A stretch of DNA of 64,000 bases from Elusimicrobiota bacterium (GTDB lineage: Bacteria; Elusimicrobiota; Elusimicrobia; Elusimicrobiales; UBA9959): positions 7,711 to 71,710 of the forward strand of contig JAUSCK010000277.1 of the NCBI GenBank assembly GCA_030651035.1. The letters are read 5' to 3'. Positions 6,631 to 52,119 of this stretch are shown one piece after another; the first letter of the stretch is position 1, and the number at the start of each line of letters is the position of its first letter. Both the position numbers and the translations under genes were made by a program. The notes below the pieces were generated by a model that saw only the letters and a list, made by a program, of their open reading frames with translations, did no database searches and was not told where the DNA came from.

Positions 6631-6690
6631 ATGCCTCTCCACCGCCTTAAAAGCCTTCGCTCTTTACGCTTCCGGCCTATACGGTCTTCT

Positions 6691-35316: not shown

Positions 35317-35335
35317 AAAAATATCTGTATTCGCC

Positions 35336-35364: not shown

Positions 35365-35370
35365 CCCCAG

Positions 35371-35400
35371 AAAAAAGGCGGCACTATACTAGCCTGCCGC
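35371..35400 (-). terminator. Hairpin plus U-tract (terminator of the rSAM operon and/or leader attenuator of the Rrf2-giant unit)
   Basis: The minus strand reads GCGGCA-GGCUAGUAUAG-UGCCGC followed by CUUUUUUCU. It lies downstream of the predicted -10 at 35415-35420. Confidence 0.4.
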
Positions 35401-35414
35401 TTGTTGATATCTAT

Positions 35415-35442
35415 AGTATAGCAGGCGTATTTCCATAGTCAA
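35415..35442 (-). promoter_or_regulatory. Sigma70-like promoter for Rrf2 and the giant gene
   Basis: The minus strand reads TTGACT-N16-TATACT. The -35 box overlaps the rSAM stop codon (35439-35441). Confidence 0.5.
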
Positions 35443-36536: not shown

Positions 36537-36563
36537 ATCCGGATTTCCCGAATGGGGTGCGAA

Positions 36564-36905
36564 TTACACGAACAACAGAGCAAGCGAGCGGCGGATCTTT
36601 GAGTAGATATAGCCGCAAAGGCCGCCGGCAAGGGGGTTTCGGCTCAGGACTTTGCCGCGGATATTTTCCCATGGCACCAGGTGGGGTTCCAGGCGGCCGG
36701 CGTCATCCGCCAGCCAGGCGCCTTCCGGCCCGGTTTTTACCACCCGGTGAAGCAATATGCGGCCCTCAAGATCGTATACAGCGCAATCGCCTGGGGAAAG
36801 GATAAGGGATGAGGGATGAGGGATGAGGGGATGCACGAGGGCAATCTCGCCGGGTTTAAATACCGGGAGCATGCTTGACCCCTCAAGACGGAAAGCGGCG
36901 GGCAT
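36564..36905 (-). CDS. S26B-type (SipW/Sec11-like) signal-peptidase-fold protein, candidate leader peptidase
   Basis: 113 aa. EGSSMLPVFKPGE (GxSMxP Ser box) and ILLHRVVK (His in place of Lys, as in archaeal/ER-type S26B). The ATG lies 2 nt after the precursor stop. Confidence 0.6.
   Translation of the reverse strand: MPAAFRLEGSSMLPVFKPGEIALVHPLIPHPSSLILSPGDCAVYDLEGRILLHRVVKTGPEGAWLADDAGRLEPHLVPWENIRGKVLSRNPLAGGLCGYIYSKIRRSLALLFV
36797..36831 (+). repeat. Five tandem heptamers RARGGAT inside the peptidase gene
   Basis: aaaggat aagggat gagggat gagggat gagggga, encoding the loop PLIPHPSSLILSP in frame. Confidence 0.85.
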
Positions 36906-36907
36906 AT

Positions 36908-37045
36908 TCAGGAAAATTTTTTAAGCGTCTTACAGGCCAGCTGGCTGATGGGCCCGGTCTGGCACTTGCCGCAGGCCAGCGCGGCGGTCTCAAAGACCTT
37001 TTCGGTCTTTATTTTAGGTTTTTCGTATGTCTTCTTTTTTTTCAT
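36908..37045 (-). CDS. 45-aa candidate RiPP precursor peptide (not in the ORF track)
   Basis: My translation is MKKKKTYEKPKIKTEKVFETAALACGKCQTGPISQLACKTLKKFS. GGGGGAG sits 7 nt upstream of the ATG. The ORF begins 14 nt after the PqqD stop, and its stop is 2 nt before the peptidase ATG. It has a PqqA-like KP leader, an A-L-A site and three Cys. Confidence 0.7.
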   Translation of the reverse strand: MKKKKTYEKPKIKTEKVFETAALACGKCQTGPISQLACKTLKKFS

Positions 37046-37059
37046 AGATCACTCCCCCG

Positions 37060-37323
37060 TCAGGTCTTTTTAGCAAGCAGGCCGGCTTTCAAAAGCTCGG
37101 CAATAAAGCTGTTCATATCCGCGCGGGCGGTTTCTTCGTCCACTTCGAATTCGGCCGTAATTGCCGAGACCAGGGCGCTTTCCTTTTTACCGGAGGCAAG
37201 GCCTTCCCAGATAAGGGCGGCGGGGCTGTTCAGCTCGTGCAACTCGGCCCGGGAGGCGTCCACTATGAACATTTCCCCGGCAATGCGCCGGTAAGCCAGG
37301 TCCTTTTTAATATTGGTCTTCAT
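37060..37323 (-). CDS. PqqD-family peptide chaperone (RRE)
   Basis: 87 aa. IAGEMFIVDASRAELHELNSPAALIWEGL...ITAEFEVDEETARADMNSFIAELLKAGLL fits the PqqD pattern. Confidence 0.8.
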   Translation of the reverse strand: MKTNIKKDLAYRRIAGEMFIVDASRAELHELNSPAALIWEGLASGKKESALVSAITAEFEVDEETARADMNSFIAELLKAGLLAKKT

Positions 37324-37355
37324 TAGTATTTATCCGAAAAGTCAGCGGGCTTTTT

Positions 37356-37763
37356 TCATTGAAACAGCGTTTTTACCCAATCAAGGTAACGGCCAACATC
37401 TTTTGTGATGTCCGACGCTTCCCGTTCGGTAAATTCCCTGGAATCATATTCCACTATGCTCTTTTGCCCAAGGATACGGGTAAGCCGGGCGGACTGTACG
37501 CTGACCTTCTCGTGCTTTATGTGAATACACAGCAGCTCTACCGCCTCATAGTGGCTTTCTCCGGCTGAGCGCACCTTGGCTTTAAATCCCAGCGCCGCGT
37601 CGGTAGCGGATATAGCGCAGTGGACTCCCGCCAGGCCCGCCGAATTCCACCGTCTTTGTCTGCAGGACTCCAGCATGGTCTGGTAGAATTCCTCAGCCTT
37701 CTTCAGATAGGATTTTGCCTCGGCTTCGCTCACATGCCTGGTGCGGTGTTTTTTAGGGCTCAT
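37356..37763 (-). CDS. HEPN-domain protein (toxin of an MNT/HEPN pair)
   Basis: Helical protein of about 135 aa with an R-x5-H motif (RSAGESH). It overlaps the upstream MNT gene by 11 nt. The track start at 37781 is TTG; ATG 37763 is preferred. Confidence 0.7.
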   Translation of the reverse strand: MSPKKHRTRHVSEAEAKSYLKKAEEFYQTMLESCRQRRWNSAGLAGVHCAISATDAALGFKAKVRSAGESHYEAVELLCIHIKHEKVSVQSARLTRILGQKSIVEYDSREFTEREASDITKDVGRYLDWVKTLFQ

Positions 37764-38376
37764 GGGCCAGCAGCTCCTCAAAATATTTACCGGAAATTAC
37801 GCGGCCTTCCTTGATCACATTTTGGATCAATTTATCTTTTTTATCGAACCTGGCGACAAAGTCCCGGCGACGAATAACATGCGGGGAAAGCATCATTCCG
37901 AATTTGGCCAGAAATTCCCCGCTTTTATCCTGTATGCCAGCGGTGATCTTCCGGACATCGAGGGAATCCTCAAGCACGAGCATAATATCCAGGTCGCTGC
38001 CCTGTCTGCCTTCCCCGCGCGCCACACTGCCGAAGACGATCAGGGACACGACGCCTTTATTCGGCAGCGCCTTGCGCAGCTCCTCTATCATCGCGCCAAA
38101 CAGCCCCCCCTCGCTTTCGAAAAGGGGAGACAGCATATTTTTAACCACATAACGCGTTCTGTTGAGCGAGAATAAATATGAAGCCCCCGCGGTCTTCCTG
38201 TGGACGATGCCCGCGGCATAGAGTTCCTGCAGGGCCTGCTGCGCGGCCCTGGGGCTCAAGTCCGCCTTCCTGGCAATTTCCCTGCCCGTGAATTCCGTCC
38301 CGCGGTAAAGGATGCGGAGAATAGTCACCTTTGACTTCTGCCCCAGAAAATCCTCCAGCAGATGCTTTGTGTCCAT
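37753..38376 (-). CDS. Winged-helix plus minimal nucleotidyltransferase (MNT) protein
   Basis: N-terminal wHTH (KVTILRILYRGTEFTGREIARKADLSPRAAQQALQEL) followed by the NTase motif LIVFGSVARGEGRQGSDLDIMLVL (GS...DxD). Confidence 0.8.
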   Translation of the reverse strand: MDTKHLLEDFLGQKSKVTILRILYRGTEFTGREIARKADLSPRAAQQALQELYAAGIVHRKTAGASYLFSLNRTRYVVKNMLSPLFESEGGLFGAMIEELRKALPNKGVVSLIVFGSVARGEGRQGSDLDIMLVLEDSLDVRKITAGIQDKSGEFLAKFGMMLSPHVIRRRDFVARFDKKDKLIQNVIKEGRVISGKYFEELLAHEP

Positions 38377-38377
38377 A

Positions 38378-38438
38378 TGTATACTTAAGTAGCCATTTGT
38401 ATGCTAATAGTATACACCCCCCGGCGCTCCCCTGTCAA
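38378..38438 (-). promoter_or_regulatory. Sigma70-like promoter with TGTATAC operator boxes upstream of MNT/HEPN
   Basis: The minus strand reads TTGACA (38438-38433)-N18-TATACT (38414-38409). Inverted repeat TGTATAC (38378-38384) / GTATACA (38410-38416), plus a TGTATGC half-site at 38398-38404. Confidence 0.55.
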
Positions 38439-38451
38439 CCCCGCATCCTCT

Positions 38452-38476
38452 TTGCGCATCTTGCGCTTCTTTGCGG
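38452..38476 (-). repeat. Post-stop 25-mer, second copy
   Basis: The minus strand reads CCGCAAAGAAGCGCAAGATGCGCAA, a 24/25 match to 775-799. It starts 9 nt after the HprK-like stop; the first copy starts 3 nt after the ABC ATPase stop. Confidence 0.85.
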
Positions 38477-38485
38477 CTAATCCCA

Positions 38486-39355
38486 CTAACTAATAAGGCT
38501 CAGGAAATCAGCGTTATCCTTTGAGAATTCCAACCGGGCGAACTTCGCTTTTGAGATCAACTGGACGGCATTCCCCATTATCAAAGTCGAGGTCCCCGGG
38601 TTTTTATCAAAATTCACCAGGCAGCGGAGCAGCAGTTTAAGCGCTTCACCCTTTGTACAGGCGCGCACTTTGTTGAGCTTCGCCTTGTTAAGCAGGTAGA
38701 TCCCGCCCAGGGGCCAGGAGCCCTGCCTGCCATCGGCGCGCATCTCCCCCCAGAAAGGGGAGCCGTAAACCCTGAAGCGGCCCTTTTCAAAGCGGACGAG
38801 GTTTATTTCGTCGCTTATTACCTCGGCCCCGCACTTTTTCCGAAGACGGCCAAAGTGCGGGGCAAGCCCCTGGGCCGCTAATTTCGCCAGGGTGGACTTG
38901 CCGGCGCCGGATTTGCCTAAAAAAAGGTATGCTTTGCCGTTCTTAACCAGCCCGGCCGAATGCTGCATGAAGCCGCCGGAACGGATGAGCAAAAAACTTA
39001 TAAAAGAACGTAAAAAAGCGTCAAGGCACTGTTCATTGGGGGCGGCTTTCAGTGTTCCGGCCCCGGCACGCATATCCAGAACCGCCTCAAAATCCCCGCG
39101 CTTAATTTCCAGAGAGCGTCCGTCAAACAAAACCTCCGGCTTGAACGGGTTTTGCCTGCCGGGGGCCTCAGAAACATCCAGCCTGAAGCCCGCGCCGACC
39201 GCCGACCCGAATTTACTATACCTGTGCTTTAAAATTGAAATGATACTTATCGCGTCCGATTTCAGGCTTAACCTGAAACCGGCTATTTCAAGCCCCACCC
39301 GGCCTGAGAAAGCGGCCAGGGTCTTTCCACTGTTTTTCAAAGGGAATTTTATCAT
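38486..39355 (-). CDS. HprK-related kinase-like P-loop protein
   Basis: 289 aa. HSAGLVKNGKAYLFLGKSGAGKSTLAKLA resembles the HPr kinase C-terminal P-loop. No HPr kinase N-terminal domain is present. Confidence 0.6.
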   Translation of the reverse strand: MIKFPLKNSGKTLAAFSGRVGLEIAGFRLSLKSDAISIISILKHRYSKFGSAVGAGFRLDVSEAPGRQNPFKPEVLFDGRSLEIKRGDFEAVLDMRAGAGTLKAAPNEQCLDAFLRSFISFLLIRSGGFMQHSAGLVKNGKAYLFLGKSGAGKSTLAKLAAQGLAPHFGRLRKKCGAEVISDEINLVRFEKGRFRVYGSPFWGEMRADGRQGSWPLGGIYLLNKAKLNKVRACTKGEALKLLLRCLVNFDKNPGTSTLIMGNAVQLISKAKFARLEFSKDNADFLSLIS

Positions 39356-39451: not shown

Positions 39452-42001
39452 TTAACCTCCCAACACGCGCGCCCTTGCCCGCCAAAGCCCGGCTTTTTTC
39501 TGTTCCCCGCGCGCGGCATACAGCCGGGCCATCGTCGTCGCGGCTTTAAAGCTCAAAGGGTCGCGGCTTACGGCGACCTCGCAGCAGCGCAGCGCGCGGC
39601 CGAGATCTCCCGTCTGCGCGGCATAGTACGCCAGCTGCAGCCAATCGTCCGACCCCCAATTGCGTCCGAACCTCGCTTCCAGCCAGTCCAGGAACCGCAG
39701 TGTCAGGGCCGGCCTGCCCGCCAGTACCGGCCAGACCGAACGCTGGAATAAGTCGGTATGCGTATAGAAAATGACAAGGGCCTGCTCGAGGAAGCGGGGG
39801 TCATCCGGGCCGCGCAGTTTTATATTGTAGGACCCGGGGTTTATGGCCACCTGGTCGGGCGGCGGCTCTTTCGTGTACCGCGCGGCAACCGCCTGGAATT
39901 CCAGCAGCGGGAGATCGTCGGTGTTCGGCGTCACTTTCGCCAGGTCCGGGCGCGGGAAGATATCGCCGGTCAGCAGGATATTATTCAGATGCATGAACGG
40001 GTCCGCGCCGCTGGCGCCGGTCTCTACCGCTTTTTGTACCCCCGGCGGCAGCCAGGCTCCGGCGGCGGAACGCAGCTTCACTTCGGAATCGGAACAGACG
40101 AGCACATAATAGTTCGCGCGGGCGAGCGCCAGCCCGCAATGCCGGAAATTCCGGGACAGGGTGGCTAGTATCGTGTCCACCCCCGCGTTCGACATGTCGA
40201 GGTAGGTGAACCAGAGCAGGTAGACGCCGTCCGGCGCGAGGGCGCGCTTCACCAGGGTGTAGAACTCCATCGTGTGCAGTTTGGCCGCGGCCGCGTAGTC
40301 CGGCGGGGGCAGCGTGCTGACTATCGCGTCGTACGGCGCGCGGGGCCGGGCCAGGAACCTGCGCCCGTCGTCATGGTAGATAGAGGCCCCGGGGTTGCGG
40401 GCCAGGTCGAGGTTCGCGCCGGGAATTATAGGGAGCAGGGGGCGGCAGGCGCCGTTGATCTCCACGATATCGGTATGCCCGAACAGCGAAGCCACCGTTC
40501 CGGCCGTTATGCCGGTACCCAGGCCGAGGACGAGGGCCCTGTCCCTCCTGGGGGCCGCCAGGGCGGGCAGCACGCCGTAGACGGTCTCGGAGATGTTGGC
40601 GTTATCCTTCGTCCCGAAATGTATCCCTCCCACGCCGTTGTGTATTATGGACGAATTGATACGGCCCCGGACATAGGTGACATTGTCGGACGCGGACTTG
40701 AAGTGGACCAGCGTGGCGCCGGGTTCATACGGCGTGTTGGCCGCATACACCAACCCCTGCGGCAGGCCGGTAACCCGCCAGCACAGCAGGGCGGCAGCGC
40801 ACAGGGTCGGCAGGCGCCGCCGGGCGAACCCGGGCCCTTCGTAGACGAGGGCCGCGGAGACCAGCAGGGCGGCGCCTAAGACGGGAGCCGTGAAAAGCCC
40901 GGACAGCGGGTGGACGGCGAAAGTGTAGAGCAGGAGCCCGACGGCGTTGCCCAGGCCGGACACCAGCAGCAGCCGCCCGCTGTCGCGCGCCAGGCGCGGC
41001 GAGGCGCCGGCCAGCGCCGGGATGGCTCCCCAGAACCAGATTACCGGCAGGCCGCCCAGCAGGAATGCGAAAAAGAGCTTAAGCGCTACAGCGGCCGCTT
41101 CCGTAGACACCCCGGCCAGGAGGCCGTAATAGCCCTTCACCAGCAAAGGGAAAGCGGCGTAGATCAAGCCGATGCCGAAAGCCGAGAGCAGCGCGCAGTC
41201 GGCGAACCCCGTGTTCCGGCGGCGGACCAGCCAGGTCCCGGCCGTAATGGAGAACAGGGTGGCCGCGGTGCAGACGGCGAAGTTCTCGCGGCTGGGCAGG
41301 AATATACAATAGCCGGCCTTGAGAAAAAAAGCCGAGAACAGCGCCCCGCCCAGGCTGGCCAGGAACAGGGCCGTTCCCTGCCGGAGAAAAGGGGAGGGAG
41401 CATCCGGCAGTTCAGTTTTTTTTACCTCGCGGAGGTCGGGCCGCAGCCAGAGCGCCAGGCCGCAGGCCAGGCTCAGCGCGCCCAGCAGCCGCAGCGACAC
41501 GATCACGCCGAAATAACGGACGGCGGCAAACTCCATGAGGAGCAGCCCGGCGGCGGCGCCTATATTATAGAGGGAGTACGCCGAATGCAGCGGGAAATCC
41601 CCCTCCCCCCGCCGCTCCAGGTAGGCGGCGAACAGCGGCACGGCGAACCCCGCCGCTACCGCCGGAACGGCTAGCAGCAGCGCGGAAGCCAGCACGGCCT
41701 GCGCGCCGGGATGCGGAAGCAGCTCCGCAAGGGGCGAGGCCTCGTAAGCCCGCGCCAGCGCCGGGAAAAAGAAAGCGTACGCGCCGGCGGCAAGCTCGAA
41801 AATATGAAGGCGGGAAGCGAAGCGGTGCGCTACCCACGCGCCCAGGCCCAGGCCCAGCAGGAAAACCGCCACGAGCGCGGCGTGGACATAATACATGTCG
41901 CCCAGGAAGGTGGTCAGATGGCGCAGGTAGAGGACCTCGCAGGCGACGCCGCCGGCGCCGGAGAGCACGGATAAAAGCAGGAGCAGGTTGACGGGGTTCA
42001 T
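39452..42001 (-). CDS. Fused polytopic membrane / spermidine-synthase-fold protein with C-terminal TPR
   Basis: 849 aa. N-terminal SGAGGVACEVLYLRHL plus about 12 hydrophobic segments, a class-I MTase/spermidine-synthase-like core (ALVLGLGTGITAGT...DIVEIN...YDAIVS) and a TPR-like tail. Confidence 0.7.
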   Translation of the reverse strand: MNPVNLLLLLSVLSGAGGVACEVLYLRHLTTFLGDMYYVHAALVAVFLLGLGLGAWVAHRFASRLHIFELAAGAYAFFFPALARAYEASPLAELLPHPGAQAVLASALLLAVPAVAAGFAVPLFAAYLERRGEGDFPLHSAYSLYNIGAAAGLLLMEFAAVRYFGVIVSLRLLGALSLACGLALWLRPDLREVKKTELPDAPSPFLRQGTALFLASLGGALFSAFFLKAGYCIFLPSRENFAVCTAATLFSITAGTWLVRRRNTGFADCALLSAFGIGLIYAAFPLLVKGYYGLLAGVSTEAAAVALKLFFAFLLGGLPVIWFWGAIPALAGASPRLARDSGRLLLVSGLGNAVGLLLYTFAVHPLSGLFTAPVLGAALLVSAALVYEGPGFARRRLPTLCAAALLCWRVTGLPQGLVYAANTPYEPGATLVHFKSASDNVTYVRGRINSSIIHNGVGGIHFGTKDNANISETVYGVLPALAAPRRDRALVLGLGTGITAGTVASLFGHTDIVEINGACRPLLPIIPGANLDLARNPGASIYHDDGRRFLARPRAPYDAIVSTLPPPDYAAAAKLHTMEFYTLVKRALAPDGVYLLWFTYLDMSNAGVDTILATLSRNFRHCGLALARANYYVLVCSDSEVKLRSAAGAWLPPGVQKAVETGASGADPFMHLNNILLTGDIFPRPDLAKVTPNTDDLPLLEFQAVAARYTKEPPPDQVAINPGSYNIKLRGPDDPRFLEQALVIFYTHTDLFQRSVWPVLAGRPALTLRFLDWLEARFGRNWGSDDWLQLAYYAAQTGDLGRALRCCEVAVSRDPLSFKAATTMARLYAARGEQKKAGLWRARARVLGG

Positions 42002-44301
42002 GAGCGGTCGGCCTGGAGAGAGTCGAAAATGGACAGGGAAGGCGACCCGTGCGCCCAGCGGTATTCCAGCACGGGGCGGTCGTCGGAGTGGAGGTAAGGC
42101 GGCGCGAAGCCGTTATCCTCATTAAGCTTTTTCTCGAACTCGCGCGAATACCGGAAAGCCTCGCTGAAAAAAGCGCGGGGGTCGCTTATCCCGAGCCGCC
42201 TCATTTCCGCGAGCATACGCGGGCCCGCCCGCTCCAGGCTGACCGGCGCGTCCTCCAGCGGCCCGGCGAAAGCCACTACGTTGAAATCCTTGCCGTAGGC
42301 GGGGAAATACAGCACGGTGGAGAACACCGAGCGCAGCCCCCGGGAAAGCAGCAGTATATCGTTGCCGTGTACGAGCTGGGTGTACGCGCCGCCGGGGTTT
42401 AGCCGGGACTTTGCCAGCCGCCAGAAGTCCACGGTATAAAGCGAAGAGGAACCCGGCAGGTACGGGTCGAGCACGTTCACGCTGATCACGTCGTAGGTGC
42501 GCTCCTCCGCAGCCAGCAGGCGGCGGCCGTCCCCGGCCAGGAGCTCCGCGCGATCGTCATTGTAGTAGCCGGAATTGAATTCCTGGAAAAGGCGCTGGAT
42601 GCGCAGAAAGAACGGCAGGATCTCGATGGTACGCATCTCGCGGACGCCCTCCGCCTGCAGGAAGGCCCCGGCCGTAAGGCCGAACCCGGTGCCGATGTTC
42701 AGCACGCTCTCGCAGCGCCTGGCGAGCAGGCAGGAGAAGTACGCGGGGGTTTTCTGCGCATAGCTGGTAGCGGGGTTCCCGAGCGGGTTGACCAGGCTGA
42801 GCCGGTTATTGCGGACCTTCAGCCCGTCGGGACCGCGCACCGCGACCTGTATGCCGTATTCATCCTCGTTGCTGTCAAGCAGGGTTTCGCCCTGCTTGAG
42901 GAAGATGAAGTTCTTAGGCGAGAGCTGCCAGCCTAAAGCCAGGGCCGCCAGGCTTGCGGCGGCCGCGGAAGCCAGCCGCCTATTTTCAAGCAGCGCGGTG
43001 AAACAGGCGAGCGCCGCCAGCACCGCCACGCCGGAGGCGGCGACAAAGCCGTAAGCGGTGCCGATTCTTGCCGGCAGCCACAGCCCGCCGTACACCGCGC
43101 CGAGCGCGGCGCCGAGCGAACTGGCCGCGAACAGGAGGCCGGAAAGCCTGCCGGGCCGCCCGCTCTCAGTCTCGGCGGCCTGGAGCAGGACCGGGAAGAC
43201 GGCTCCAAGCGCCACTACGCCCGGCCCCATGGCCAGGAGGGTGAGGGAGATCCTGCCCGCCCCGCTGTTCCCCGGCAGCCAGGACGGGAACAGGGCGCCG
43301 CCGACGATCGCATGCGCCAGCCCGGCGCCCGCCGGGTGCAGGAAAGCGGAAATGGAAAGCAGGAAGGCGGCGATGAGGAGGGCGCCGCGCCTGCCCCGCA
43401 CTTTTTCCGCAGCGGCCAAAGTGCGGGGCCTGCCGCCCCAGCGGCGGCCTGCGAAACGGGCTAAAGAGCAGCCCAGGACAAGGCAGGACAGGTAAATGGC
43501 CAGCAGCAGCGAAATGGCCAAAGTCCGGTCGCCCAGGTAAAATTTGGCTACCCTTCCCCAGAGCAGCTCATAGCACAGCGACAGCGCACCGGACAGAAAG
43601 GCCAGGGCCAGGAAGGGCGCGGCCGGAAACGGCAGACTTTTCTCAGGCGGCAGCCCGCCGTTTTGGGGGATGTCCCCGGCTCCGGACACAGCAAACCCCA
43701 GCAAGGCCGCCGCTGCGTACATGAACAGCGCCAGGTCGGCGGTCCCGGAAACACCGAACAGCCAGAGCAGCGCAAAACCGCAGGCGAGCGCCCCGACGGC
43801 CCCGCCGGCCGTATTTACCGCGTACAAAGCGGCCGCCTCGTCCCCCGCTTTCTTCCCCTCTTTCAAAGCGCCGACGATAACGGGGAAACCTATCCCCATC
43901 GGGACGGCCGCCAGCAGGATAAGCGCAAGGGCCTGCGCGGAGGTCACCGTGTCGCCATGCCGGAGAAGCGCCCAGACCGCCAGGCGCCCGAATAGCCCGG
44001 CGGAAAGGTTAACGGCGGAAAGGGTCAGGAGGGGTCTGCGGAGGAAAGGCAAAAGCAGGCTTCCCAGCCAGGAACCGAGGGCTAGCGCCAGTATGAACGC
44101 GGCAAAAACGGCGGTCATGGCCGCGGCGGTCGAACCGGCTATATTGGAATAGAGCCGGGTTAAAAGGACTTCGAAGACCAGCCCCCCGGCGCCGGAAATA
44201 AAAAAAAGCGTTTTGAGCCAGAAAAGCCTGCTCCTGCGGGAAAAACAGCGATAAAGGGGGTCCTCACCGAGGATAGCGCGCAGCCCGGCCAGGCTGATCA
44301 T
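41998..44301 (-). CDS. Fused polytopic membrane / spermidine-synthase-fold protein (paralogue)
   Basis: 767 aa. ISGAGGLVFEVLLTRLYS plus multiple TM segments, then VLNIGTGFGLTAGA...EILPFF...YDVISVNVLDPYLPGSSSLYTVDFW. It has a 4-nt ATGA overlap with the downstream paralogue. Confidence 0.7.
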   Translation of the reverse strand: MISLAGLRAILGEDPLYRCFSRRSRLFWLKTLFFISGAGGLVFEVLLTRLYSNIAGSTAAAMTAVFAAFILALALGSWLGSLLLPFLRRPLLTLSAVNLSAGLFGRLAVWALLRHGDTVTSAQALALILLAAVPMGIGFPVIVGALKEGKKAGDEAAALYAVNTAGGAVGALACGFALLWLFGVSGTADLALFMYAAAALLGFAVSGAGDIPQNGGLPPEKSLPFPAAPFLALAFLSGALSLCYELLWGRVAKFYLGDRTLAISLLLAIYLSCLVLGCSLARFAGRRWGGRPRTLAAAEKVRGRRGALLIAAFLLSISAFLHPAGAGLAHAIVGGALFPSWLPGNSGAGRISLTLLAMGPGVVALGAVFPVLLQAAETESGRPGRLSGLLFAASSLGAALGAVYGGLWLPARIGTAYGFVAASGVAVLAALACFTALLENRRLASAAAASLAALALGWQLSPKNFIFLKQGETLLDSNEDEYGIQVAVRGPDGLKVRNNRLSLVNPLGNPATSYAQKTPAYFSCLLARRCESVLNIGTGFGLTAGAFLQAEGVREMRTIEILPFFLRIQRLFQEFNSGYYNDDRAELLAGDGRRLLAAEERTYDVISVNVLDPYLPGSSSLYTVDFWRLAKSRLNPGGAYTQLVHGNDILLLSRGLRSVFSTVLYFPAYGKDFNVVAFAGPLEDAPVSLERAGPRMLAEMRRLGISDPRAFFSEAFRYSREFEKKLNEDNGFAPPYLHSDDRPVLEYRWAHGSPSLSIFDSLQADRS

Positions 44302-44314: not shown

Positions 44315-45664
44315 TCACAGGCCGGCCGGCCATACGGGCGGGACCTCGTACCAGGAGTCGGAGACTATGTCAACCCCCTGCAGCAGTATGCCGGTCGCCA
44401 CCTGGTCGTCGTAATAAATGCCCATGGTGGAAGTGCCCATGGTGGCGTCATGGGCGCTCATCAGCACGCCGTTGATATTGCAGTTGCCGCCGCCCACAAG
44501 GCCCTGGTCCCCCCCGGTATAAATAAAACCGTGTATGATCACATTGTCCAAGGTGTAGGTTTTATTGGCGGCCAGGTAGTTGGAGCTCAAAGCCGCCGCG
44601 TAAGTGGCCGGGGCCCCGCTAACCACAGGGTCGAAGGTCAGGTAATGCGCCCAGTTATTCCCATATTCCTTCCACGCCTCGGACGGCAGGCGGGCGGCAT
44701 ATTTGCCGGCGGCGCCGGCGGCGCCCCCGAAAGCCAGATCCCCGAGGACGATAACGGTGCCCCTGATGAATTGCGAAGAGCCGGCGCTGAAAGTGGCGTC
44801 CCCGGTTATGTAGTAGGTTTTATTGGTGATATCGTTGCAGCCGGAGAAAGTCGCATTCCCGACCCTGTAATAGGTGGAAGCTTTGGCGTTGCCGCAGCCA
44901 GTCGGGGCCGCGCCGCTGGCCGTGGCCGAGGCCAGGTAAGAGGAAAATTTGATATTCGGCAGCGGCGGGATGGCGTAATAAGACCACCAGTAAACATTGT
45001 CCGTATTGGAGGTGGTAGAGCCGCCGTCCTGCGGCGTTACATGCCCGGCGCTGTAATACCGGGGGAAGGTGCGGGCGGTGGCATCGATGGAGTTGCCGGA
45101 CACTACCGACCCCCACTCTATATGGTCGTTGCCCCCGGTATTGGATACCAGGTTGGAGGCCCGGGTGGCGAAGTCGGCGGCGTTGCCGTTAAGCAGCACC
45201 TGCTTTATGCGGCGGGCCTGGGCGCGGGTTTTATCCCTCCCCACCGATTCCACTATGCGCTTGTCGGGGTCTGTAGGGTGAGAAGTGATGTTTATAGCGT
45301 AGGTGCCGCCGTCCTCGGCGGTATAAACCTTGTCGAAATGGTAGCCGGCTAGCGTGCCGGTTGAAGTGATCGTCCACATATCGTCATTCTCAAGCAGCTT
45401 CCAGCGCGCCCTGTCCACCCCGGCCTCGGCCATGTGGAAAGCCGCCGTGGCTTTTTTCTCCTTTACCGACCACTTGCCCTCGTTCTGCACGAACATGTTC
45501 ATAACAGGGAACATCAGCAGAAGGAAAAGCATTATGACGATGACCATGGTCATGGCCATCTGGCCCGGCCGGGAGGCAAAGGATAAAGGATAAAGGATAA
45601 AGGATAAAGGGCGGCGGACCAAAGCCGAAAGCACTTTCCCGCCCGAATTTTCTATTCTTTTCAT
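44315..45664 (-). CDS. PilX-like minor pilin / pilus assembly protein
   Basis: SRPGQMAMTMVIVIMLFLLLMF ... AFHMAEAGVDRARWKLL resembles the PilX N-terminal domain, followed by a large Gly/Thr/Ala-rich C-terminal region. ATG 45664 is preferred; the track start at 45700 is GTG. Confidence 0.55.
   Translation of the reverse strand: MKRIENSGGKVLSALVRRPLSFILYPLSFASRPGQMAMTMVIVIMLFLLLMFPVMNMFVQNEGKWSVKEKKATAAFHMAEAGVDRARWKLLENDDMWTITSTGTLAGYHFDKVYTAEDGGTYAINITSHPTDPDKRIVESVGRDKTRAQARRIKQVLLNGNAADFATRASNLVSNTGGNDHIEWGSVVSGNSIDATARTFPRYYSAGHVTPQDGGSTTSNTDNVYWWSYYAIPPLPNIKFSSYLASATASGAAPTGCGNAKASTYYRVGNATFSGCNDITNKTYYITGDATFSAGSSQFIRGTVIVLGDLAFGGAAGAAGKYAARLPSEAWKEYGNNWAHYLTFDPVVSGAPATYAAALSSNYLAANKTYTLDNVIIHGFIYTGGDQGLVGGGNCNINGVLMSAHDATMGTSTMGIYYDDQVATGILLQGVDIVSDSWYEVPPVWPAGL
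45578..45612 (+). repeat. Four perfect AAAGGAT heptamers plus AAAGGGC inside the PilX-like 5' region
   Basis: aaaggat x4 at 45578-45605. It encodes PLSFILYPLSFA in the putative leader. Confidence 0.9.
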
Positions 45665-45700
45665 TATTTTTTCAACCTTCCCACTCCCCGCCGTTTCCAC

Positions 45701-45728
45701 CCTTCATCCCTCAGCCTTCATCCTTTCC
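45701..45728 (-). repeat. RARGGAT word array in the pseudopilin/PilX-like spacer
   Basis: The minus strand reads GGAAAGGATGAAGGCTGAGGGATGAAGG. It is complementary to the array at 45578-45612 and 23/27 identical to the element at 54438-54460. Confidence 0.85.
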
Positions 45729-45730
45729 TG

Positions 45731-46243
45731 CTAGTTCATTATCCTCACTTTTTCCACGGCCATCTGCAGGGCCTTGGTGCCGCCCTCATAGGTGGCTTTT
45801 TCAAAGGTTAAGGAGATAGAGAGTATGGTGCCGTCGTCGGTGCGGGGGTAGGTGAAGGCGATATAGCGCAGGTTGTTGGCTATCATCTTGCCGCTGACGC
45901 CGCCCCGGGCCTGGAAGAGCTGGGTGCCCTGCTGGTAGTAAGACATAGTCTCCAGGGCGCCGGCTGAATTGTACTTTATAAAGGTTATGCGGGAATGCGG
46001 CGGCTGTCCTGAAACCGAGTCTATGACAAGGCTGGCAGCCTGCGCCTGGCGCAGGTCCCTGTTGATATTGGCCAGCGCCCCGCGGGCGTTTTTCTGTATC
46101 TCCACGCGGGCCGTCATCAGCTGCACGAACTGGAAAACCTTGGTGAATGTTTTTGGCGCGGCTATCATTACCACTCCCATGATAGCCACCACCACCATCA
46201 TCTCTATCATGGTGAAACCGCGTTTTGAGCTTATGGTTCTCAT
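45731..46243 (-). CDS. Prepilin-type N-terminal cleavage/methylation domain protein (GspJ/PilW-like pseudopilin)
   Basis: MRTISSKRG/FTMIEMMVVVAIMGVV carries the canonical G/FTxIE motif with Glu+5. 170 aa. Confidence 0.85.
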   Translation of the reverse strand: MRTISSKRGFTMIEMMVVVAIMGVVMIAAPKTFTKVFQFVQLMTARVEIQKNARGALANINRDLRQAQAASLVIDSVSGQPPHSRITFIKYNSAGALETMSYYQQGTQLFQARGGVSGKMIANNLRYIAFTYPRTDDGTILSISLTFEKATYEGGTKALQMAVEKVRIMN

Positions 46244-46247
46244 AAGG

Positions 46248-48818
46248 TCACCAGAAAAAATTGGCCGTCTTTGCTTCGGCTAGGGCCACGCTTACTGCAA
46301 GTGACTCCTGGCGGACGGTGGTGGGCACTACACCTCTCCAGGTGGTATACCAGGCGTAAACATTGTAGCTGTAGCCGCCCTTAACCGGGATAGTGTAATT
46401 GCCCAGCGCGTTGCTGGAAGCGGCGTAATAGATGCCGGTGCCTCCGCGCAGGGCCGAGTTTATAGTAGGCGGGGCGGCGCCGGCAGCCAGGGTGGCGGTG
46501 GTAACATAAACAAGCACCCCGGTGGTTATCACCGGGCCCGCGGCGCTGCCCGTGCGCACGCTGCCGCTCATGGAGCCGAACGCCCCGGAAATAGTATAGG
46601 TGGAGGAGAAAGCCGTCAGGCCGGCCGCAATCGTGACCGTAGTGCTGGAGGGGGAAGAGCTCTCTCCCGCCTCCAACTGGGGCACCACCACATAGGTGCC
46701 GGTGGAAACGCCCGAGCCGGAAATAGTGAAATAGCCGTCGGCGCCGCTTATGCCGCTGCCCTGTTCCACCCCGCCCTTGAGCCCCACCACCGGGATATTC
46801 GGCAGCGGGTCAGTGCCGTTGGTGGTTATCCGGCCGCGTATCCGGCCGCCGTAGTAAAGAGAGAAGTTCACGTCCTTTACCGCCTGGCCTATGCCCACGT
46901 TCACATCCGCGGAGGAAAGTTCCACATAGCTGGGACTTTGGCTCTGGTAGTTGGCTATCACGGTCATTACTCCGGCCGTCACGGGCAGGGTATAGCGGCC
47001 GCTCGCGTCGGTGGCTACCTGCGGGTTGCCGGATGAAAACATCTTTATGCCGGGAAGCGCGGTCCCGTAGACATTGGCGACCCGCCCGGTGACATAGCCG
47101 AAGGTCGTGATCGTGGACAGGCGGATGAAGCTGCCGGCAGAGTCGCTGAAGCTGTTCCAGGTTTTGCCGTAATAGGCCACGCTGGAAAAAGCCACGCCGC
47201 TCGAGAGATAAACCGTCCAAGAGCCGGTGGCCACGTTGACCAGGTTGAAGTAACCGTAGGAACTGGCCGTCACCGGGAAGGAAAGCCCGTCGTCGGCGAA
47301 GACCAGCGCGCCGTCCGCGGTCTGGCCGGTAACGCAGGGCTCCGAGTAAGAACTGTTATTCGGCTGGTCGACCAGCGGGAAGCTGATGCGGAAGTCGACA
47401 TAATTCATGTTGGAGTCGGAACAGCGCGCTTCGCCCGGGTTGTTCGCATACCGCACGCTGGTCCGGACAAACCCCATGCCGGGCTCCAGCCCGTTTTGGT
47501 TCTCGGTATAGGGCGGGAGGGGCACCCGCCAGTAGATGGAAAAAACCTCGTACCAGCCGAAGTCCGGGCTGTAACCGTTGTTGAGGGAATACCAACCCAC
47601 CCTGTCAATTATCTGGCCGGTAACTTTGTTATCGAGTATCACGCCGCCCGGGAAGGAAGGGACGCCGGTCTTGATGACGTTGTCCTGGTTGGCCCAGTTG
47701 GAATCACTGTCATAGACCGCGTCGGCCTGGCGGGTGACGCCGACGGCCGTAATGGTGCCGGTATTGGCGAACAGGAAATAGGTGTTGGAAGACAGGCTGA
47801 CGGTGCGGTAGTCGAAGTCCGGCGCGATCTCGGTGACGTTTTTTTCCTTATATCTGATGCCCACCACCTCGTTGGCGCCGGTGCCGAGCCCTGTGGCCAT
47901 GGTCCAGGTCCAGGTGGTAGGGTTGTAGACCTCCACCCACTCGTCGTCACCGGTGGCGGTGGCCGAGCTGCCCACGATCTGGCTGATGACGAGGCGGTCC
48001 GCAATATGTGCGTAGCCCCATATCGAGCCGCTGTTCATCTGGGTAAGCGTGAAATCTTTTCCGGTGGCGTTCTGGGCGGAGAGTACCCCGAAAGAGGAAA
48101 GCGTGCCCGTGAAATAGCCGCTCTTGGTGGCCAGCAGGGTATAGGTGCCGGGCTCTATGGTGAAGTAGTACTCCCCGTTGACGTCGGTTACACCGTATTT
48201 CGAGGGGTTTTCCTGCGCGCGCACTATCACGTCCTGCAGGTGGGCGCCGCCGCTGGAGTGCACGGTGCCTCTTATGGAGGCGCTCAGATTGACGCGTTCC
48301 GGGTTTTCCCGCATGTTCCGTATCTCCAGTTTGCGCCATTCCCCGCGCTCAAACCAGGCCACATAAACCTTGACCTCCTTAAGCCCGGGATCCGGCTCGT
48401 CCCAGGCGAGGTAGTCGAGGCTGCCGTCGGCAGCTTCATTAACCTTTCTTACATAGACCCGCCGGATAAAATTCAGGCCGCCCACGTTCACCGTCTCCTG
48501 GCCGTTCGGGGCGCGGTCATAGACCATCTCGCCCGCTGGGAAATTATCGTCGGAAACCGGGTCAGTTGTGACGAGCACCCTGTAATAGGATTTATTCTTA
48601 AGGTACTCAATCCTTTCCTGCGCGATGTTGTTGGCCAGCGAGCGGGTTTTGGCGGACTGCACGCCCACGTTGAAGTACTTGAAAGCCCCGATCATGCCCA
48701 GCACGCCCACTGACATCACGACCATGGCTACCTTGAGTTCCACAAGGGTCCCGCGGGCGCGCCGGCGCGCCGGTGCGCCGGAGAATATCCGGCTTAAATG
48801 TTTCACAACTCTTGTCAT
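46248..48818 (-). CDS. PilV-like minor pilin fused to a large adhesin-like region (CarboxypepD_reg-like and lamin-tail-like)
   Basis: RRRARGTLVELKVAMVVMSVGVLGMIGAF...SLANNIAQERIEYLK is PilV-like but degenerate (no G-F). It also has GTVHSSGG..LQDVIVRAQE...TDVNGEYYFTIEPGTYTLLATKSGY and a lamin-tail motif DDEWVEVYNPT. ATG 48818 has GAGGGA 7 nt upstream; the alternative ATG is 48848. Confidence 0.6.
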   Translation of the reverse strand: MTRVVKHLSRIFSGAPARRRARGTLVELKVAMVVMSVGVLGMIGAFKYFNVGVQSAKTRSLANNIAQERIEYLKNKSYYRVLVTTDPVSDDNFPAGEMVYDRAPNGQETVNVGGLNFIRRVYVRKVNEAADGSLDYLAWDEPDPGLKEVKVYVAWFERGEWRKLEIRNMRENPERVNLSASIRGTVHSSGGAHLQDVIVRAQENPSKYGVTDVNGEYYFTIEPGTYTLLATKSGYFTGTLSSFGVLSAQNATGKDFTLTQMNSGSIWGYAHIADRLVISQIVGSSATATGDDEWVEVYNPTTWTWTMATGLGTGANEVVGIRYKEKNVTEIAPDFDYRTVSLSSNTYFLFANTGTITAVGVTRQADAVYDSDSNWANQDNVIKTGVPSFPGGVILDNKVTGQIIDRVGWYSLNNGYSPDFGWYEVFSIYWRVPLPPYTENQNGLEPGMGFVRTSVRYANNPGEARCSDSNMNYVDFRISFPLVDQPNNSSYSEPCVTGQTADGALVFADDGLSFPVTASSYGYFNLVNVATGSWTVYLSSGVAFSSVAYYGKTWNSFSDSAGSFIRLSTITTFGYVTGRVANVYGTALPGIKMFSSGNPQVATDASGRYTLPVTAGVMTVIANYQSQSPSYVELSSADVNVGIGQAVKDVNFSLYYGGRIRGRITTNGTDPLPNIPVVGLKGGVEQGSGISGADGYFTISGSGVSTGTYVVVPQLEAGESSSPSSTTVTIAAGLTAFSSTYTISGAFGSMSGSVRTGSAAGPVITTGVLVYVTTATLAAGAAPPTINSALRGGTGIYYAASSNALGNYTIPVKGGYSYNVYAWYTTWRGVVPTTVRQESLAVSVALAEAKTANFFW

Positions 48819-48928
48819 TACCTGATCCCTCACCCGGAACAAAACCATTATAGATACTCTATTACAAAAAAATCAAGGGGGAAACAAAAAAAAATCAAAT
48901 TTCGGCCAAATCCCATAGAGCAAATGGT

Positions 48929-51231: not shown

Positions 51232-52119
51232 ATGGAAGAAGAACAGAAGAAGTCCGGCTGGAAGATCTGGGTCTACCTCACCCCGGTATATATAGTGCTG
51301 GCCATGCTGCTTGTCAGGTGGACCGCGAAGATAAACTCCAGCGACATCAACCTTACAAAGGAAGGCTATAACGCCTTCAACGCCCCCGACGGTGAAATAA
51401 AAAAACGCCGGGACGACGGCTACGACCCGAATCTCAGCGACAGCGGCTACAACGTGCGCTACCGCTCCGGCGGGGCCGAAGCCGGCAAGCTGCGGGGGGA
51501 CGGGCCAACCCGGCAGGCCTTAGAGCAGGCTGAAAAAGCCGCCGCCGCGCGCCGGGCGCAGGACCAAAAAACCGAGGAAGCCGGCCAGGCGCGCGGGGGC
51601 AAAACCGCCAACCAGAACGCGCTGGAATCCAACGACACCAAGGCCAAGGAGCAGATGACCGCGGGATACAAGAAAGGCTACCTGAGCTACGCCGTGGAAA
51701 AGGTCATGAATAATCCCAAGGCCGTGGGCGCGCTTATGAACAACAAGTATGTGGTCGAAGGCTTTATGTCCAGGGGCACGGTAAAATCCGCCACGGGCAG
51801 CGCGCAGGGCCTGGCCAACTATCTCAAAAGCGACGGGCCGTCCAACTTCATGAACAACCCCGTGGTTAAAGCCGCCCTGAATAACCCCGCGCTGGTGAGC
51901 GCCGTGGCCGGGAGCGGCATGGTAAGCGCCATGCTGAACACGCCGGCGGCGAAGGCGCTTATGAACGACCCCGCCGCCCTGAGCGATTTGATCAACAACA
52001 ACCCGCAGCTGATGGCCCTGGCAATGCAGAACCCGCAAACCCTTAGCACGCTGATGGCCAATCCCGAGGTCTCCGGCCTGGTGGGCAAGTTCGACACCAG
52101 CAAAATCAAAAAATATTAA
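51232..52119 (+). CDS. Membrane-anchored protein with C-terminal NPxx-hydrophobic repeats (STI1/ubiquilin-like pattern)
   Basis: N-terminal TM (WKIWVYLTPVYIVLAMLLV), then NNPVVKAALNNPALVSAV...LNTPAAKALMNDPAALSDLINNNPQLMALAMQNPQTLSTLMANPEVSGLV. Confidence 0.5.
   Translation: MEEEQKKSGWKIWVYLTPVYIVLAMLLVRWTAKINSSDINLTKEGYNAFNAPDGEIKKRRDDGYDPNLSDSGYNVRYRSGGAEAGKLRGDGPTRQALEQAEKAAAARRAQDQKTEEAGQARGGKTANQNALESNDTKAKEQMTAGYKKGYLSYAVEKVMNNPKAVGALMNNKYVVEGFMSRGTVKSATGSAQGLANYLKSDGPSNFMNNPVVKAALNNPALVSAVAGSGMVSAMLNTPAAKALMNDPAALSDLINNNPQLMALAMQNPQTLSTLMANPEVSGLVGKFDTSKIKKY

Follow-up and report, generated by a model that had tools for sequence, protein, structure and literature searches.

Organization of the locus

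The window analysed here is a stretch of 64,000 nucleotides from an Elusimicrobiota bacterium, and it carries on its minus strand a tight operon of three genes, referred to below as genes 1 to 3 (Table 1). A preliminary description made from the DNA letters had reported these three open reading frames, and we found them as described, together with every peptide it quoted (RGTLVELKVAMVVMSVGVLG, KRGFTMIEMMVVVAIMG, RPGQMAMTMVIVIML and DDEWVEVYNPT). Its reading of the trio as three consecutive pilin-type genes was upheld for an I-like (PilV/GspI), a J-like (GspJ/PilW) and a K-like (PilX/ComZ) member, the last by predicted structure only.

In the ORF map, gene 2 begins 4 bp past gene 1. Since the -10 element of a promoter match overlaps the first ATG of gene 1 (48848), translation likely starts at the downstream ATG at 48818, which agrees with the NCBI model; gene 3 is probably translated from the ATG at 45664, giving 449 aa. 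Gene 3 is followed after 13 bp by two fused MFS/spermidine-synthase-like genes that overlap each other by 4 bp. Because all but one of the other loci lack the pair at that position, we regard it as an operon passenger here, outside the conserved trio.

Table 1. Coordinates of the trio, its modules and adjoining features in the window
Feature	Position	Strand	Description
Promoter match, sigma-70-like	48847..48876	-	TTGATT-18-TATAAT, 10/12; just upstream of gene 1; consensus match only
Gene 1	46248..48848	-	Modular PilV/GspI-type minor pilin; 866-aa ORF; probable start 48818, giving 856 aa
Gene 1 pilin module	48294..48752	-	Degenerate class III signal peptide RAR-G-TLVELK, ~50-residue alpha1 helix, beta-sheet
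Gene 1 CarboxypepD_reg (transthyretin-like) beta-sandwich 1	48042..48278	-	PF13620, 44.5 bits on isolated segment
Gene 1 LTD-like beta-sandwich with insertions	47379..47999	-	Contains DDEWVEVYNPT; PF00932 below cut-off
Gene 1 C-terminal chain	46248..47321	-	Four further beta-sandwich modules (AF2 secondary structure, segment scans)
Gene 2	45731..46243	-	170 aa; canonical small prepilin, GspJ/PilW-like
Gene 3	44315..45700	-	Predicted pilin in PilX/GspK position, without Glu5, with inserted beta-solenoid, ComZ-like; 461-aa ORF
Gene 3 pilin module	45188..45568	-	Helix 33-102, four strands at 109-159 (AF2)
Gene 3 beta-solenoid module	44414..45166	-	Residues ~167-417 (~250 aa), then terminal strand 433-441
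Two fused MFS/spermidine-synthase-like membrane proteins	39452..44301	-	Directly after gene 3

A PilV/GspI-type pilin with a large beta-sandwich extension

In the AF2 model of gene 1 (pLDDT 84.7), residues 25-74 form a helix and 87-171 hold the strands; the model of gene 3 likewise has a long alpha1 helix that leads into a beta-sheet. Among 24 N-termini of the gene 1 family, the PilV profile TIGR02523 matched all 24 (best E 1e-11), ComGE-type models matched 22 and GspI 16, and PilV scored above GspI in all 24 members; the PilV, GspI and GspJ matches of the trio all lie below the curated cut-offs and cover mostly alpha1 only. Stand-alone PilV/GspI-like pilins of 120-135 aa are distant relatives of the module, at about 90% coverage.

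Gene 1 had been said to lack the canonical G/F cleavage dipeptide. This is true of the window copy, but the family is canonical: 99 of 106 homologues combine G at -1 with a hydrophobic residue at +1 and E at +5. The copy in the window, an outlier, has R at -1, G at +1 and K at +7, and its N_methyl score is only 9.8 bits; R at -1 occurs in 2 of the 106 homologues, this copy included, and K at +7 in this copy only, while its Glu is in register with the family. The missing dipeptide is a peculiarity of the window copy and not a family trait. Because its cleavage site is degenerate at these three positions, the gene 1 protein of this genome may be cut one residue away from the usual site or be processed poorly.

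The pilin module is followed by six beta-sandwich modules, and this extension spans about 680 aa, not the 800 claimed earlier, with the CarboxypepD_reg and LTD-like sandwiches both present. CarboxypepD_reg reached 71.3 bits on the whole of gene 1 against a Pfam cut-off of 32.3, and Foldseek matched the first sandwich to the carboxypeptidase D/N domain with an rmsd of 2.1-2.2. The combination of N_methyl and PF13620 is one of the 15 commonest modular-pilin architectures (PMC8179133). As for the lamin-tail hallmark, the motif is there, but PF00932 gave the window copy 17.8-21.9 bits, below its cut-off of 34.3, while covering profile positions 6-108 of 109. At the family level 15 of 18 segments matched LTD at E<=0.01 (best E 1.2e-7), so that an LTD-like identity of the window module is supported across the family despite the sub-threshold score. 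One of the four C-terminal sandwiches is a CarboxypepD_reg domain at 28 bits and the rest are weak or without assignment; the top Foldseek matches of this chain are tandem-sandwich surface proteins, namely the B. anthracis TIE protein and Gram-positive pilins.

Genes 2 and 3

The perfect prepilin motif attributed to the 170-aa protein was borne out. Apart from its KRG/FTMIEMMVVVAIMG the window has no canonical class III motif, and N_methyl scored 35.5 bits on this protein (cut-off 21.2). GspJ matched residues 8-76 at 27.3 bits and Verru_Chthon cassette protein C matched at 29.3 bits; in the gene 2 family these models matched 6/9 and 9/9 proteins, respectively. Judged by its sequence, gene 2 encodes a canonical GspJ/PilW-like prepilin.

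The third protein had been called PilX-like, and this did not hold at the sequence level: no PilX model matched in profile searches with the gene 3 protein, and neither PilX_N nor ComZ could be linked to it by sequence. Its N-terminus, RPG/QMAMT, is without Glu5, and 46 gene 3 homologues have a conserved R-x-G-Q-M-A-I N-terminus in common. Only the predicted structure (pLDDT 82) shows gene 3 to be a pilin. In a Foldseek search against the PDB, the best three matches were chains of ComZ (6qvi), with E 2e-7 and probability 1.0 at a TM-score of 0.25-0.27, and ice-binding beta-helices ranked next. The preliminary description had also placed a fused module on the pilin itself; gene 1 agrees with this, but the PilV-like member is not the only one so equipped, as gene 3 carries a beta-solenoid.

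Conservation and genomic context

Full-length homologues of gene 1 number 115, and all those carrying a source name are labelled Elusimicrobia; some are annotated 'pseudopilin PulG' by JGI. The order of the trio was the same in 50 of 58 loci, from genomes taken one per species and nearly all labelled Elusimicrobia, which places the feature well beyond chance. The trio is the only constant unit across the 58 loci, and its sequences diverge much faster than the flanks, as expected for exposed surface structures.

A giant neighbour gene at 6691-34857 carries the LTD motif at aa 8429 and 8562, in line with the earlier report of two copies, and Pfam LTD, which matched in two stretches, scored 101.8 bits. 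In about 15 of the 58 loci, a linkage confined to one clade, the trio is found upstream of a gene for a giant secreted protein; in distant lineages it stands alone, beside housekeeping genes.

As reported before, the trio set contains no PilY1 and no major pilin; nor does it include an H-type (FimU/GspH) fourth subunit. Among the window ORFs that were run against Pfam, none belongs to the machinery that assembles pili or secretion systems. The window has neither a prepilin peptidase nor an ATPase, a platform protein, a secretin or a major pilin, and no class III signal peptide other than the trio's; a motif scan of about 1 Mb of flanking DNA from some 70 related loci detected none of these components either. 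GspD, GspE and GspF were not found nearby.

Proposed role of the trio

We consider it probable that the trio is the core minor-pilin set of a type IV filament, most likely a type IVa-like pilus, of an Elusimicrobiota bacterium, and that its three subunits make up a priming/tip complex displaying grafted ligand-binding modules. Like GspI-J-K, PilV-W-X and S. sanguinis PilA-B-C, the three pilin modules would come together in the inner membrane via their alpha1 helices, prime filament assembly and then sit at the distal tip, with prepilin peptidase and ATPase presumably encoded elsewhere. The capping subunit of tip complexes is without Glu5 (PMC10191384), and gene 3 would be the capping subunit because it, too, is without Glu5. 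Its beta-solenoid may occupy the place of PilY1 in other systems, as proposed for beta-solenoid PilX in cyanobacteria (bioRxiv 10.64898/2026.02.12.705559); a location at the pilus tip has also been argued for ComZ (PMC6561018). Gene 1, as an I-type pilin with a sandwich graft, would project from the tip as a flexible ligand-binding stalk, most likely for a carbohydrate or a cell surface. Homology and fold thus suggest a tip-complex role and an adhesive function.

The evidence can be read in other ways. In bacteria, LTDs frequently occur in fusion with extracellular nucleases, and ComGE-type models match most gene 1 N-termini, so the trio might instead be the tip of a DNA-uptake (competence) pilus whose ComZ-like solenoid, possibly with the LTD-like module, captures extracellular DNA. 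ComZ, the top structural match of gene 3, binds dsDNA and is required for transformation (PMC6561018), and one cyanobacterial PilX-solenoid subfamily is linked to competence (bioRxiv 10.64898/2026.02.12.705559). We nevertheless think this unlikely: the solenoid is equally like ice-binding and adhesin beta-helices, the DNA-binding lysines of ComZ cannot be aligned to gene 3 since there is no sequence-level match, CarboxypepD_reg is usually interpreted as carbohydrate-binding-like (PMC8179133) and no com genes lie nearby. A GspI-J-K-type tip of a type II secretion pseudopilus, serving as the tip of a piston or as an adaptor for substrates such as, perhaps, large surface proteins, would fit the GspI and GspJ matches, the PulG name, the giant gene downstream in some loci and the giant genes of Omnitrophota that adjoin T2SS-like loci with class III signal peptides (bioRxiv 10.1101/2023.11.21.568195). 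However, PilV outscores GspI throughout, giant-gene linkage is limited to one clade and core Gsp genes were not found nearby; GspK contains an alpha-domain, while the K-type subunits known to have a beta-solenoid belong to T4aP systems (PMC6561018; bioRxiv 10.64898/2026.02.12.705559; PMC8179133), and a periplasmic pseudopilus and secretin would hardly accommodate a 680-aa stalk. This reading seems to us very unlikely.

Gene 1 in this genome might also no longer be a filament subunit, but an uncleaved membrane-anchored periplasmic or surface protein, or a decaying copy. Its rare R at -1, unique K at +7 and low N_methyl score speak for this, as the last residue of leader peptides is Gly or Ala (PMC10191384). 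We find it quite unlikely, given that the ORF is intact and full length, 80% identical to its nearest homologue and conserved at its C-terminus; that a Gly remains one position later, where cleavage would give Glu4; that the Glu keeps its register; and that genes 2 and 3 both conform to the pattern of their families. Moreover, both changes are single-base substitutions and could be MAG consensus errors. Finally, the trio, the SynChlorMet-type peptide-modification cassette downstream of it and the giant LTD-bearing protein could together form a single system, in which the trio would, for instance, dock or export the giant adhesin. The order trio-ScmC-PqqD-peptide-rSAM-Rrf2-giant recurs in several MAGs at 35-65% identity, and an LTD-type module is common to gene 1 and the giant protein. 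Yet only about 15 of the 58 loci preserve this arrangement, the trio stands by itself in distant lineages, unrelated genes sit between trio and cassette in the window, and Rrf2 and a gap separate the units; we hold such a joint system to be highly improbable.

Comparison with known systems

The trio, read as a tip complex, is a recognisable example of a known modular pilin design and not a new type of machine. Modular type IV pilins likewise join a small pilin module to C-terminal functional domains that are not pilus-specific (Raynaud et al. 2021, PMC8179133), and S. sanguinis PilA-PilB-PilC are three minor pilins, one I-like and two bulky modular subunits, with predicted tip exposure (PMC9934059, PMC10191384). 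In contrast to these, the largest graft of the trio, six sandwiches including an LTD-like one, is borne by the I-like subunit, the host is a diderm, and the predicted grafts are beta-sandwich and beta-solenoid rather than vWA or lectin.

Gene 3 resembles Thermus thermophilus ComZ (PDB 6QVI; PMC6561018) and cyanobacterial PilX (bioRxiv 10.64898/2026.02.12.705559), which combine a pilin fold with a large ice-binding-like beta-solenoid and are encoded with small minor pilins and without PilY1. However, sequence similarity to ComZ is not detectable, the TM-score is only ~0.25, the DNA-binding residues are unmappable, and the Thermus and cyanobacterial sets have a FimT/FimU-type fourth subunit.

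The Verru_Chthon cassette (TIGR02596/TIGR02599) is also a small pilin-like operon away from assembly genes, and its protein C is matched over its first 61 residues by all nine proteins of the gene 2 family that were compared. This match is N-terminal only, at 29 bits against a cut-off of 256.5, and the cassette has four members of differing size in another phylum.

The trio follows the same I, J, K logic as GspK-GspI-GspJ of the T2SS and FimU-PilVWX(-PilY1) of T4aP, though its matches are all below family cut-offs. Like a GspK-type cap, gene 3 is without Glu5 and, in the I-J-K comparison, is the largest subunit, but it has a beta-solenoid where GspK has its alpha-domain; the set is without an H-type subunit and PilY1, and its I subunit is about six times the size of GspI or PilV.

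Organization of the pilin-type trio

The three consecutive pilin-type open reading frames reported in the preliminary description were confirmed on the minus strand of the window, and every peptide that it quoted from them was recovered (see the table of positions). Genes 1 and 2 are separated by 4 bp, and genes 2 and 3 by 30-66 bp, depending on the choice of start. A sigma-70-like promoter match (10/12) overlaps the first ATG of gene 1; the identical NCBI protein begins 10 codons downstream, giving 856 aa, and the NCBI model of gene 3 comprises 449 aa; both of these identical proteins bear the label "MAG: Elusimicrobiota bacterium" (MAG, metagenome-assembled genome).

Positions of the features discussed, in the window and (last row) in a related locus
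Feature	Position	Strand	Description
Propeller protein and PorV-like protein	1791-6642	-	1070-aa PQQ/BamB-like beta-propeller protein and PorV/UPF0164-like outer-membrane protein
Giant protein	6691-34857	-	9388-aa ORF
SynChlorMet-type peptide-modification cassette	34870-39355	-
Rrf2 regulator	34870-35316	-
Radical SAM/SPASM enzyme	35439-36536	-
S24-like protein	36564-36905	-
Candidate precursor peptide	36908-37045	-	45 aa, Lys- and Cys-rich, MKKKKTYEKPKIKTEKVFETAALACGKCQTGPISQLACKTLKKFS
PqqD	37060-37323	-
HEPN protein and overlapping ORF	37356-38376	-	141 aa and 207 aa
ScmC-like P-loop protein	38486-39355	-
Spermidine-synthase-like pair	39452-44301	-	fused multi-TM (MFS)/spermidine-synthase-like proteins, 767 and 849 aa
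Gene 3	44315-45700	-	461-aa ORF
Gene 2	45731-46243	-	170-aa ORF
Gene 1	46248-48848	-	866-aa ORF
Promoter match	48876-48847	-	sigma-70-like
Ubiquilin-like repeat protein	51232-52119	+	295 aa
Second pilin-like set, L006	14723-19004	-	459, 295 and 662 aa

Gene 1 as a modular minor pilin

Type IV prepilins, as defined by PF07963 and TIGR02532, have a hydrophilic leader whose last residue is Gly or Ala; some 20 hydrophobic residues come next, in most cases with Glu at +5. The gene 1 family, represented by 115 full-length homologues (810-917 aa, 30-80% identity; all labelled Elusimicrobia where a source name is given), carries a canonical class III signal peptide of the form (R/K)(R/P)G|[VIFML]TL[VT]ELM[VI]A, with a hydrophobic residue at +1 and E at +5. 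Among 106 intact N-termini, G was found at -1 in 99 and M at +7 in 90. In a gapless alignment with its closest relative (ARRRAGVTLTELMIAMV vs ARRRARGTLVELKVAMV), the window copy reads RAR-G-TLVELK, with R at the -1 position of the family, G at +1 and K at +7, so that the Glu keeps the family register and a Gly sits one residue later. This copy scored 9.8 bits with N_methyl, below the 21.2 cut-off, and lacks a class III signal peptide by the above definition. The absence of a G/F cleavage dipeptide, which had been noted for the PilV-like member, is thus correct for the window copy but does not describe its family. Since a terminal Gly or Ala is reported for all leader peptides (PMC10191384) and the window copy has R at -1, its processing would be either shifted by one residue, leaving a Glu4, or impaired. 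Both N-terminal changes are single-base substitutions, and the degenerate N-terminus may therefore be a consensus error in the MAG; the codons concerned are CGC GGG (R-G, 48749-48754) and AAG (K, 48731-48733).

The AlphaFold2 model of gene 1, built from 73 sequences (pLDDT 84.7), places a helix over residues 25-74 and a beta-sheet over 87-171, followed by a chain of beta-sandwiches; residues 25-171 are predicted to adopt a pilin fold, consisting of the alpha1 helix and an antiparallel sheet. The PilV profile TIGR02523 matched all 24 N-terminal segments of the family (best E 1e-11) and GspI (TIGR01707) matched 16 of the 24. For the window copy, the PilV score was 25.5-28.8 bits against a cut-off of 52.2, over profile positions 5-56 only; NCBIfam returned this sub-threshold match on residues 34-84 and nothing else, and a PDB profile search with the N-terminus returned generic pilin alpha1 only. 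A profile search with the pilin module also found stand-alone pilins of 120-135 aa that cover about 90% of the module. These distant relatives score up to 51.8 bits with PilV and cover positions 1-97 of the 101 in the GspI profile, which argues that the N-terminal module of gene 1 is an I-type (GspI-like) minor pilin bearing a graft of about 680 aa.

Two proteins, P0173, of 171 aa from a 51-kb contig, and P0176, of 184 aa from an 18-kb contig, appear to be stand-alone gene 1 pilin modules and stop exactly at the linker preceding the first sandwich. P0176 looks frameshifted, and P0173 may be a natural split or truncated form.

Within the graft, the CarboxypepD_reg domains that had been proposed for this protein were confirmed: PF13620 scored 71.3 bits over four stretches of gene 1, passing its gathering threshold of 32.3, and the first domain alone reached 44.5 bits, with a Foldseek rmsd of 2.1-2.2 Å to the carboxypeptidase D/N domain. 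The lamin-tail (LTD) segment proposed alongside them corresponds to an LTD-like sandwich that carries insertions. In the window copy PF00932 covers profile positions 6-108 of 109 but, at 17.8-21.9 bits, stays below its gathering threshold of 34.3, whereas 15 of 18 segments from the family reach E<=0.01 with this profile (best 1.2e-7) and the domain is precomputed for some homologues. Four more sandwiches follow, one of them a CarboxypepD_reg domain at 28 bits. With a pilin module and at least one non-pilus-specific domain, gene 1 is a modular pilin in the sense of Raynaud et al. 2021, in which PF13620 serves as an example (PMC8179133).

Other similarities of gene 1 were set aside. The whole-model Foldseek search against the PDB matched the TIE protein, Gram-positive pilins, ushers and alpha-2-macroglobulins, all generic tandem beta-sandwich proteins; homology to sortase pilins was rejected, and the search was uninformative on the pilin and LTD modules. 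Matches to Kelch_1 and KLHL2 arise by chance from the short motif VEVYNPTTWTW, and a PDB profile search of the LTD segment returned only such chance Kelch motif matches. Big_1, MetallophosN, SdrD_B and TTR were sub-threshold and reflect generic sandwich similarity.

Gene 2, a canonical prepilin, and the predicted solenoid of gene 3

Gene 2 is a textbook prepilin, KRG|FTMIEMMVVVAIMG, in which the site reads KRG|FTMIE. The perfect cleavage motif originally read in this protein is upheld by N_methyl (35.5 bits vs 21.2) and TIGR02532 (32.2 bits vs 16.3), and is the sole canonical class III motif in the 64-kb window. Residues 8-76 scored 27.3 bits with GspJ (TIGR01711; cut-off 64.85) and 29.3 bits, far under the cut-off, with the Verru_Chthon cassette protein C. 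All nine gene 2 orthologues matched the N-terminus of the latter and six of them GspJ; the PDB profile search returned generic pilin alpha1 only. "J-like" (GspJ-like) is a reasonable label for gene 2 as a suggestion, not a demonstrated assignment.

Gene 3 of the window matched no Pfam or NCBIfam family. It had been called PilX-like, but PilX_N (PF14341) did not match it and matched only 2 of 32 family members at E<=0.1. The family (46 members) shares the N-terminus R-x-G|Q-M-A-I-x-M-V; the window copy reads G|QMAMT, the family G|QMAI(T/S/M), and E at +5 occurs in none. In the AlphaFold2 model (pLDDT 82), a helix of about 70 residues (33-102) and four strands (109-159) are followed by some 250 residues of successive short strands and then a terminal strand, and the protein is predicted to adopt a type IV pilin fold. 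The top three PDB hits in Foldseek were chains of Thermus thermophilus ComZ, 6qvi (E 2.2e-7 to 2.5e-6, probability 1.0), with ice-binding beta-helices next in rank. The model points to a ComZ-like architecture of pilin fold plus large beta-solenoid, and the order of its secondary-structure elements suggests an insertion of the solenoid ahead of the final pilin strand. The PDB profile search yielded nothing meaningful for gene 3, and no sequence alignment to ComZ was obtained. An OAD_gamma match was rejected, as it covers the hydrophobic helix only. The first reading described a graft on the PilV-like member; the predicted solenoid is a second one that it missed. Type IV filament tip complexes are capped by a subunit without Glu5 (PMC10191384), and the Glu5-less gene 3 fits this pattern.

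Conservation and divergence of the trio

In all nine loci retrieved for homologues of 31-62% identity, the three genes were adjacent and in the same order, with sizes of roughly 840, 170 and 420-590 aa. Scanning a single genome for each GTDB species gave 58 loci, nearly all from Elusimicrobia MAGs. The full trio was present in order in 50 of these, most of the others being interrupted by contig ends, and L037 and L051 contained tandem duplicated trios. A trio (L039) also lies on a complete Elusimicrobia chromosome, OY969767.1. Roughly one locus in three has the same wider neighbourhood as the window, which comprises an S8 protease, the ubiquilin-like repeat protein, a GT2 and a 262-aa protein upstream of the trio, and ScmC-PqqD-peptide-rSAM/SPASM-Rrf2-giant protein downstream. 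In the remaining loci the trio lies among unrelated housekeeping genes; this gene order argues that the trio is a functional unit and that its linkage to the giant LTD protein is clade-specific.

In several loci the flanking genes (GT2, S8) are 74-87% identical to those of the window, yet the trios fall into distinct identity classes. Gene 1 is about 62-65% identical to the window copy in a high class (L013-L015, L043), about 46% in a middle class (L047) and 31-36% in a low class (L025, L050, L057, L059-L061, L064), and genes 2 and 3 fall into the same classes. Domain-specific hypervariability of gene 1 was rejected, the divergence being even across all modules. These data suggest cassette exchange between lineages or differential loss of tandem paralogues, both typical of exposed surface structures. 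The contrast between conserved flanks and divergent trio makes the trio proteins candidate determinants of surface specificity in a phylum whose cell biology has hardly been studied by experiment.

Genes surrounding the trio

The giant protein has a signal-peptide-like N-terminus, numerous repeats, each about 100 aa long, and a PQQ-like beta-propeller at its C-terminus. The lamin-tail hallmark was rightly said to occur twice in it: two bona fide domains lie near aa 8410-8690 (101.8 bits). Orthologues of 3950-9390 aa occupy the same position in other Elusimicrobia MAGs. The 1070-aa beta-propeller protein encoded downstream carries a T9SS-type C-terminal sorting domain (Por_Secre_tail, 42 bits), which together with the PorV-like protein hints that surface proteins encoded nearby may be exported by a type IX-like route.

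The peptide-modification cassette is syntenic in about 15 of the 58 related loci. Inside it, the HEPN gene and the 207-aa ORF look like a toxin-antitoxin-type insertion into an otherwise syntenic arrangement. The spermidine-synthase-like pair, whose second member has a TPR tail, begins 13 bp after gene 3, and its two genes appear translationally coupled to each other. Its insertion between trio and ScmC was seen in this window only, but something similar occurs in L017. The 295-aa protein has an N-terminal TM segment and an Ubiquilin-1-like/STI1 DP repeat (PF23195, 36.6 bits vs 27), a eukaryote-typical repeat, and syntenic loci retain it upstream of the trio.

Assembly machinery

No prepilin peptidase, extension ATPase, platform protein, major pilin or secretin was found in the 64-kb window, and a motif scan of all fetched loci, with about 1 Mb of trio-flanking DNA, revealed no PilB/GspE Walker A, secretin or A24 peptidase. 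An A24 peptidase match in L070 was discounted, as this Atribacterota contig matches through the N-terminal helix only and is not a family member. Type IVa pilus genes are typically scattered (PMC10191384); the lack of nearby machinery would fit this organisation, and the link between the trio and an assembly system is putative. In related Endomicrobium, every genome retains pilD as well as pilins (PMC8809381), and detection of Tad systems has been reported for Elusimicrobia (PMC6668835); pili go unmentioned in the bioRxiv version of Méheust et al.

A second, different three-gene pilin-like set was present in L006, a distant Elusimicrobia locus, where it is convergent with the trio and has N_methyl on its 295-aa and 662-aa proteins. 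Its presence argues that genomes of this kind hold several minor-pilin sets.

A putative tip complex and its precedents

The trio is best explained as a putative priming/tip complex of three minor pilins, belonging to a type IV filament that is most likely a type IVa-like pilus. In such a complex, the I-type subunit (gene 1) would present a long beta-sandwich stalk, and the Glu5-less K-type (GspK-like) subunit (gene 3) would cap the filament with a beta-solenoid. Since the curated thresholds of PilV, GspI, GspJ and PilX_N are not reached, we claim by analogy that the trio would work like an I-J-K tip set, not that it is PilVWX. Overall, the observation behind the preliminary description was borne out with corrections, and its interpretation as a tip complex gained partial support.

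By default, the domain types point to carbohydrate or cell-surface adhesion as the putative function of the exposed modules. Capture of DNA instead of adhesion is a live alternative because gene 3 matches ComZ, which binds both DNA and a small I-type partner pilin, PilA2 (PMC6561018). We regard as unlikely a more specific scheme, in which the Elusimicrobiota tip is reduced to three subunits without H-type subunit or PilY1, and the I-type and K-type subunits both act as effectors. Under this scheme the complete trio would pass as a cassette between loci that are otherwise near-identical, and would thereby determine to which partner cells or polymers the pilus attaches, in one clade perhaps together with the neighbouring giant LTD protein.

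Our analysis provides a phylum-wide annotation for three gene families, mostly labelled "hypothetical" or "carboxypeptidase regulatory-like" in public databases, as the probable core minor-pilin set of Elusimicrobiota. It also adds a diderm, Elusimicrobiota-wide example both to the idea that pili gain functions by module grafts on minor pilins and to that of a beta-solenoid PilX standing in for PilY1, both recently formulated. The trio is no new type of machine or mechanism, and its cassette-like variability is mildly interesting.

Close precedents for the trio exist in several known systems. These include GspI-J-K, the S. sanguinis PilA-B-C complex and the modular pilins, among which N_methyl plus PF13620 is one of the 15 commonest architectures (PMC8179133). 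ComZ, likewise a close precedent, is a competence pilin with a beta-solenoid that has been argued to fit only at the pilus tip (PMC6561018). Cyanobacterial PilX is a further close precedent: in all its homologues the pilin fold is combined with a solenoid, which "resembles ice-binding proteins" and is proposed to replace the PilY1 plug (2026 preprint, bioRxiv 10.64898/2026.02.12.705559).
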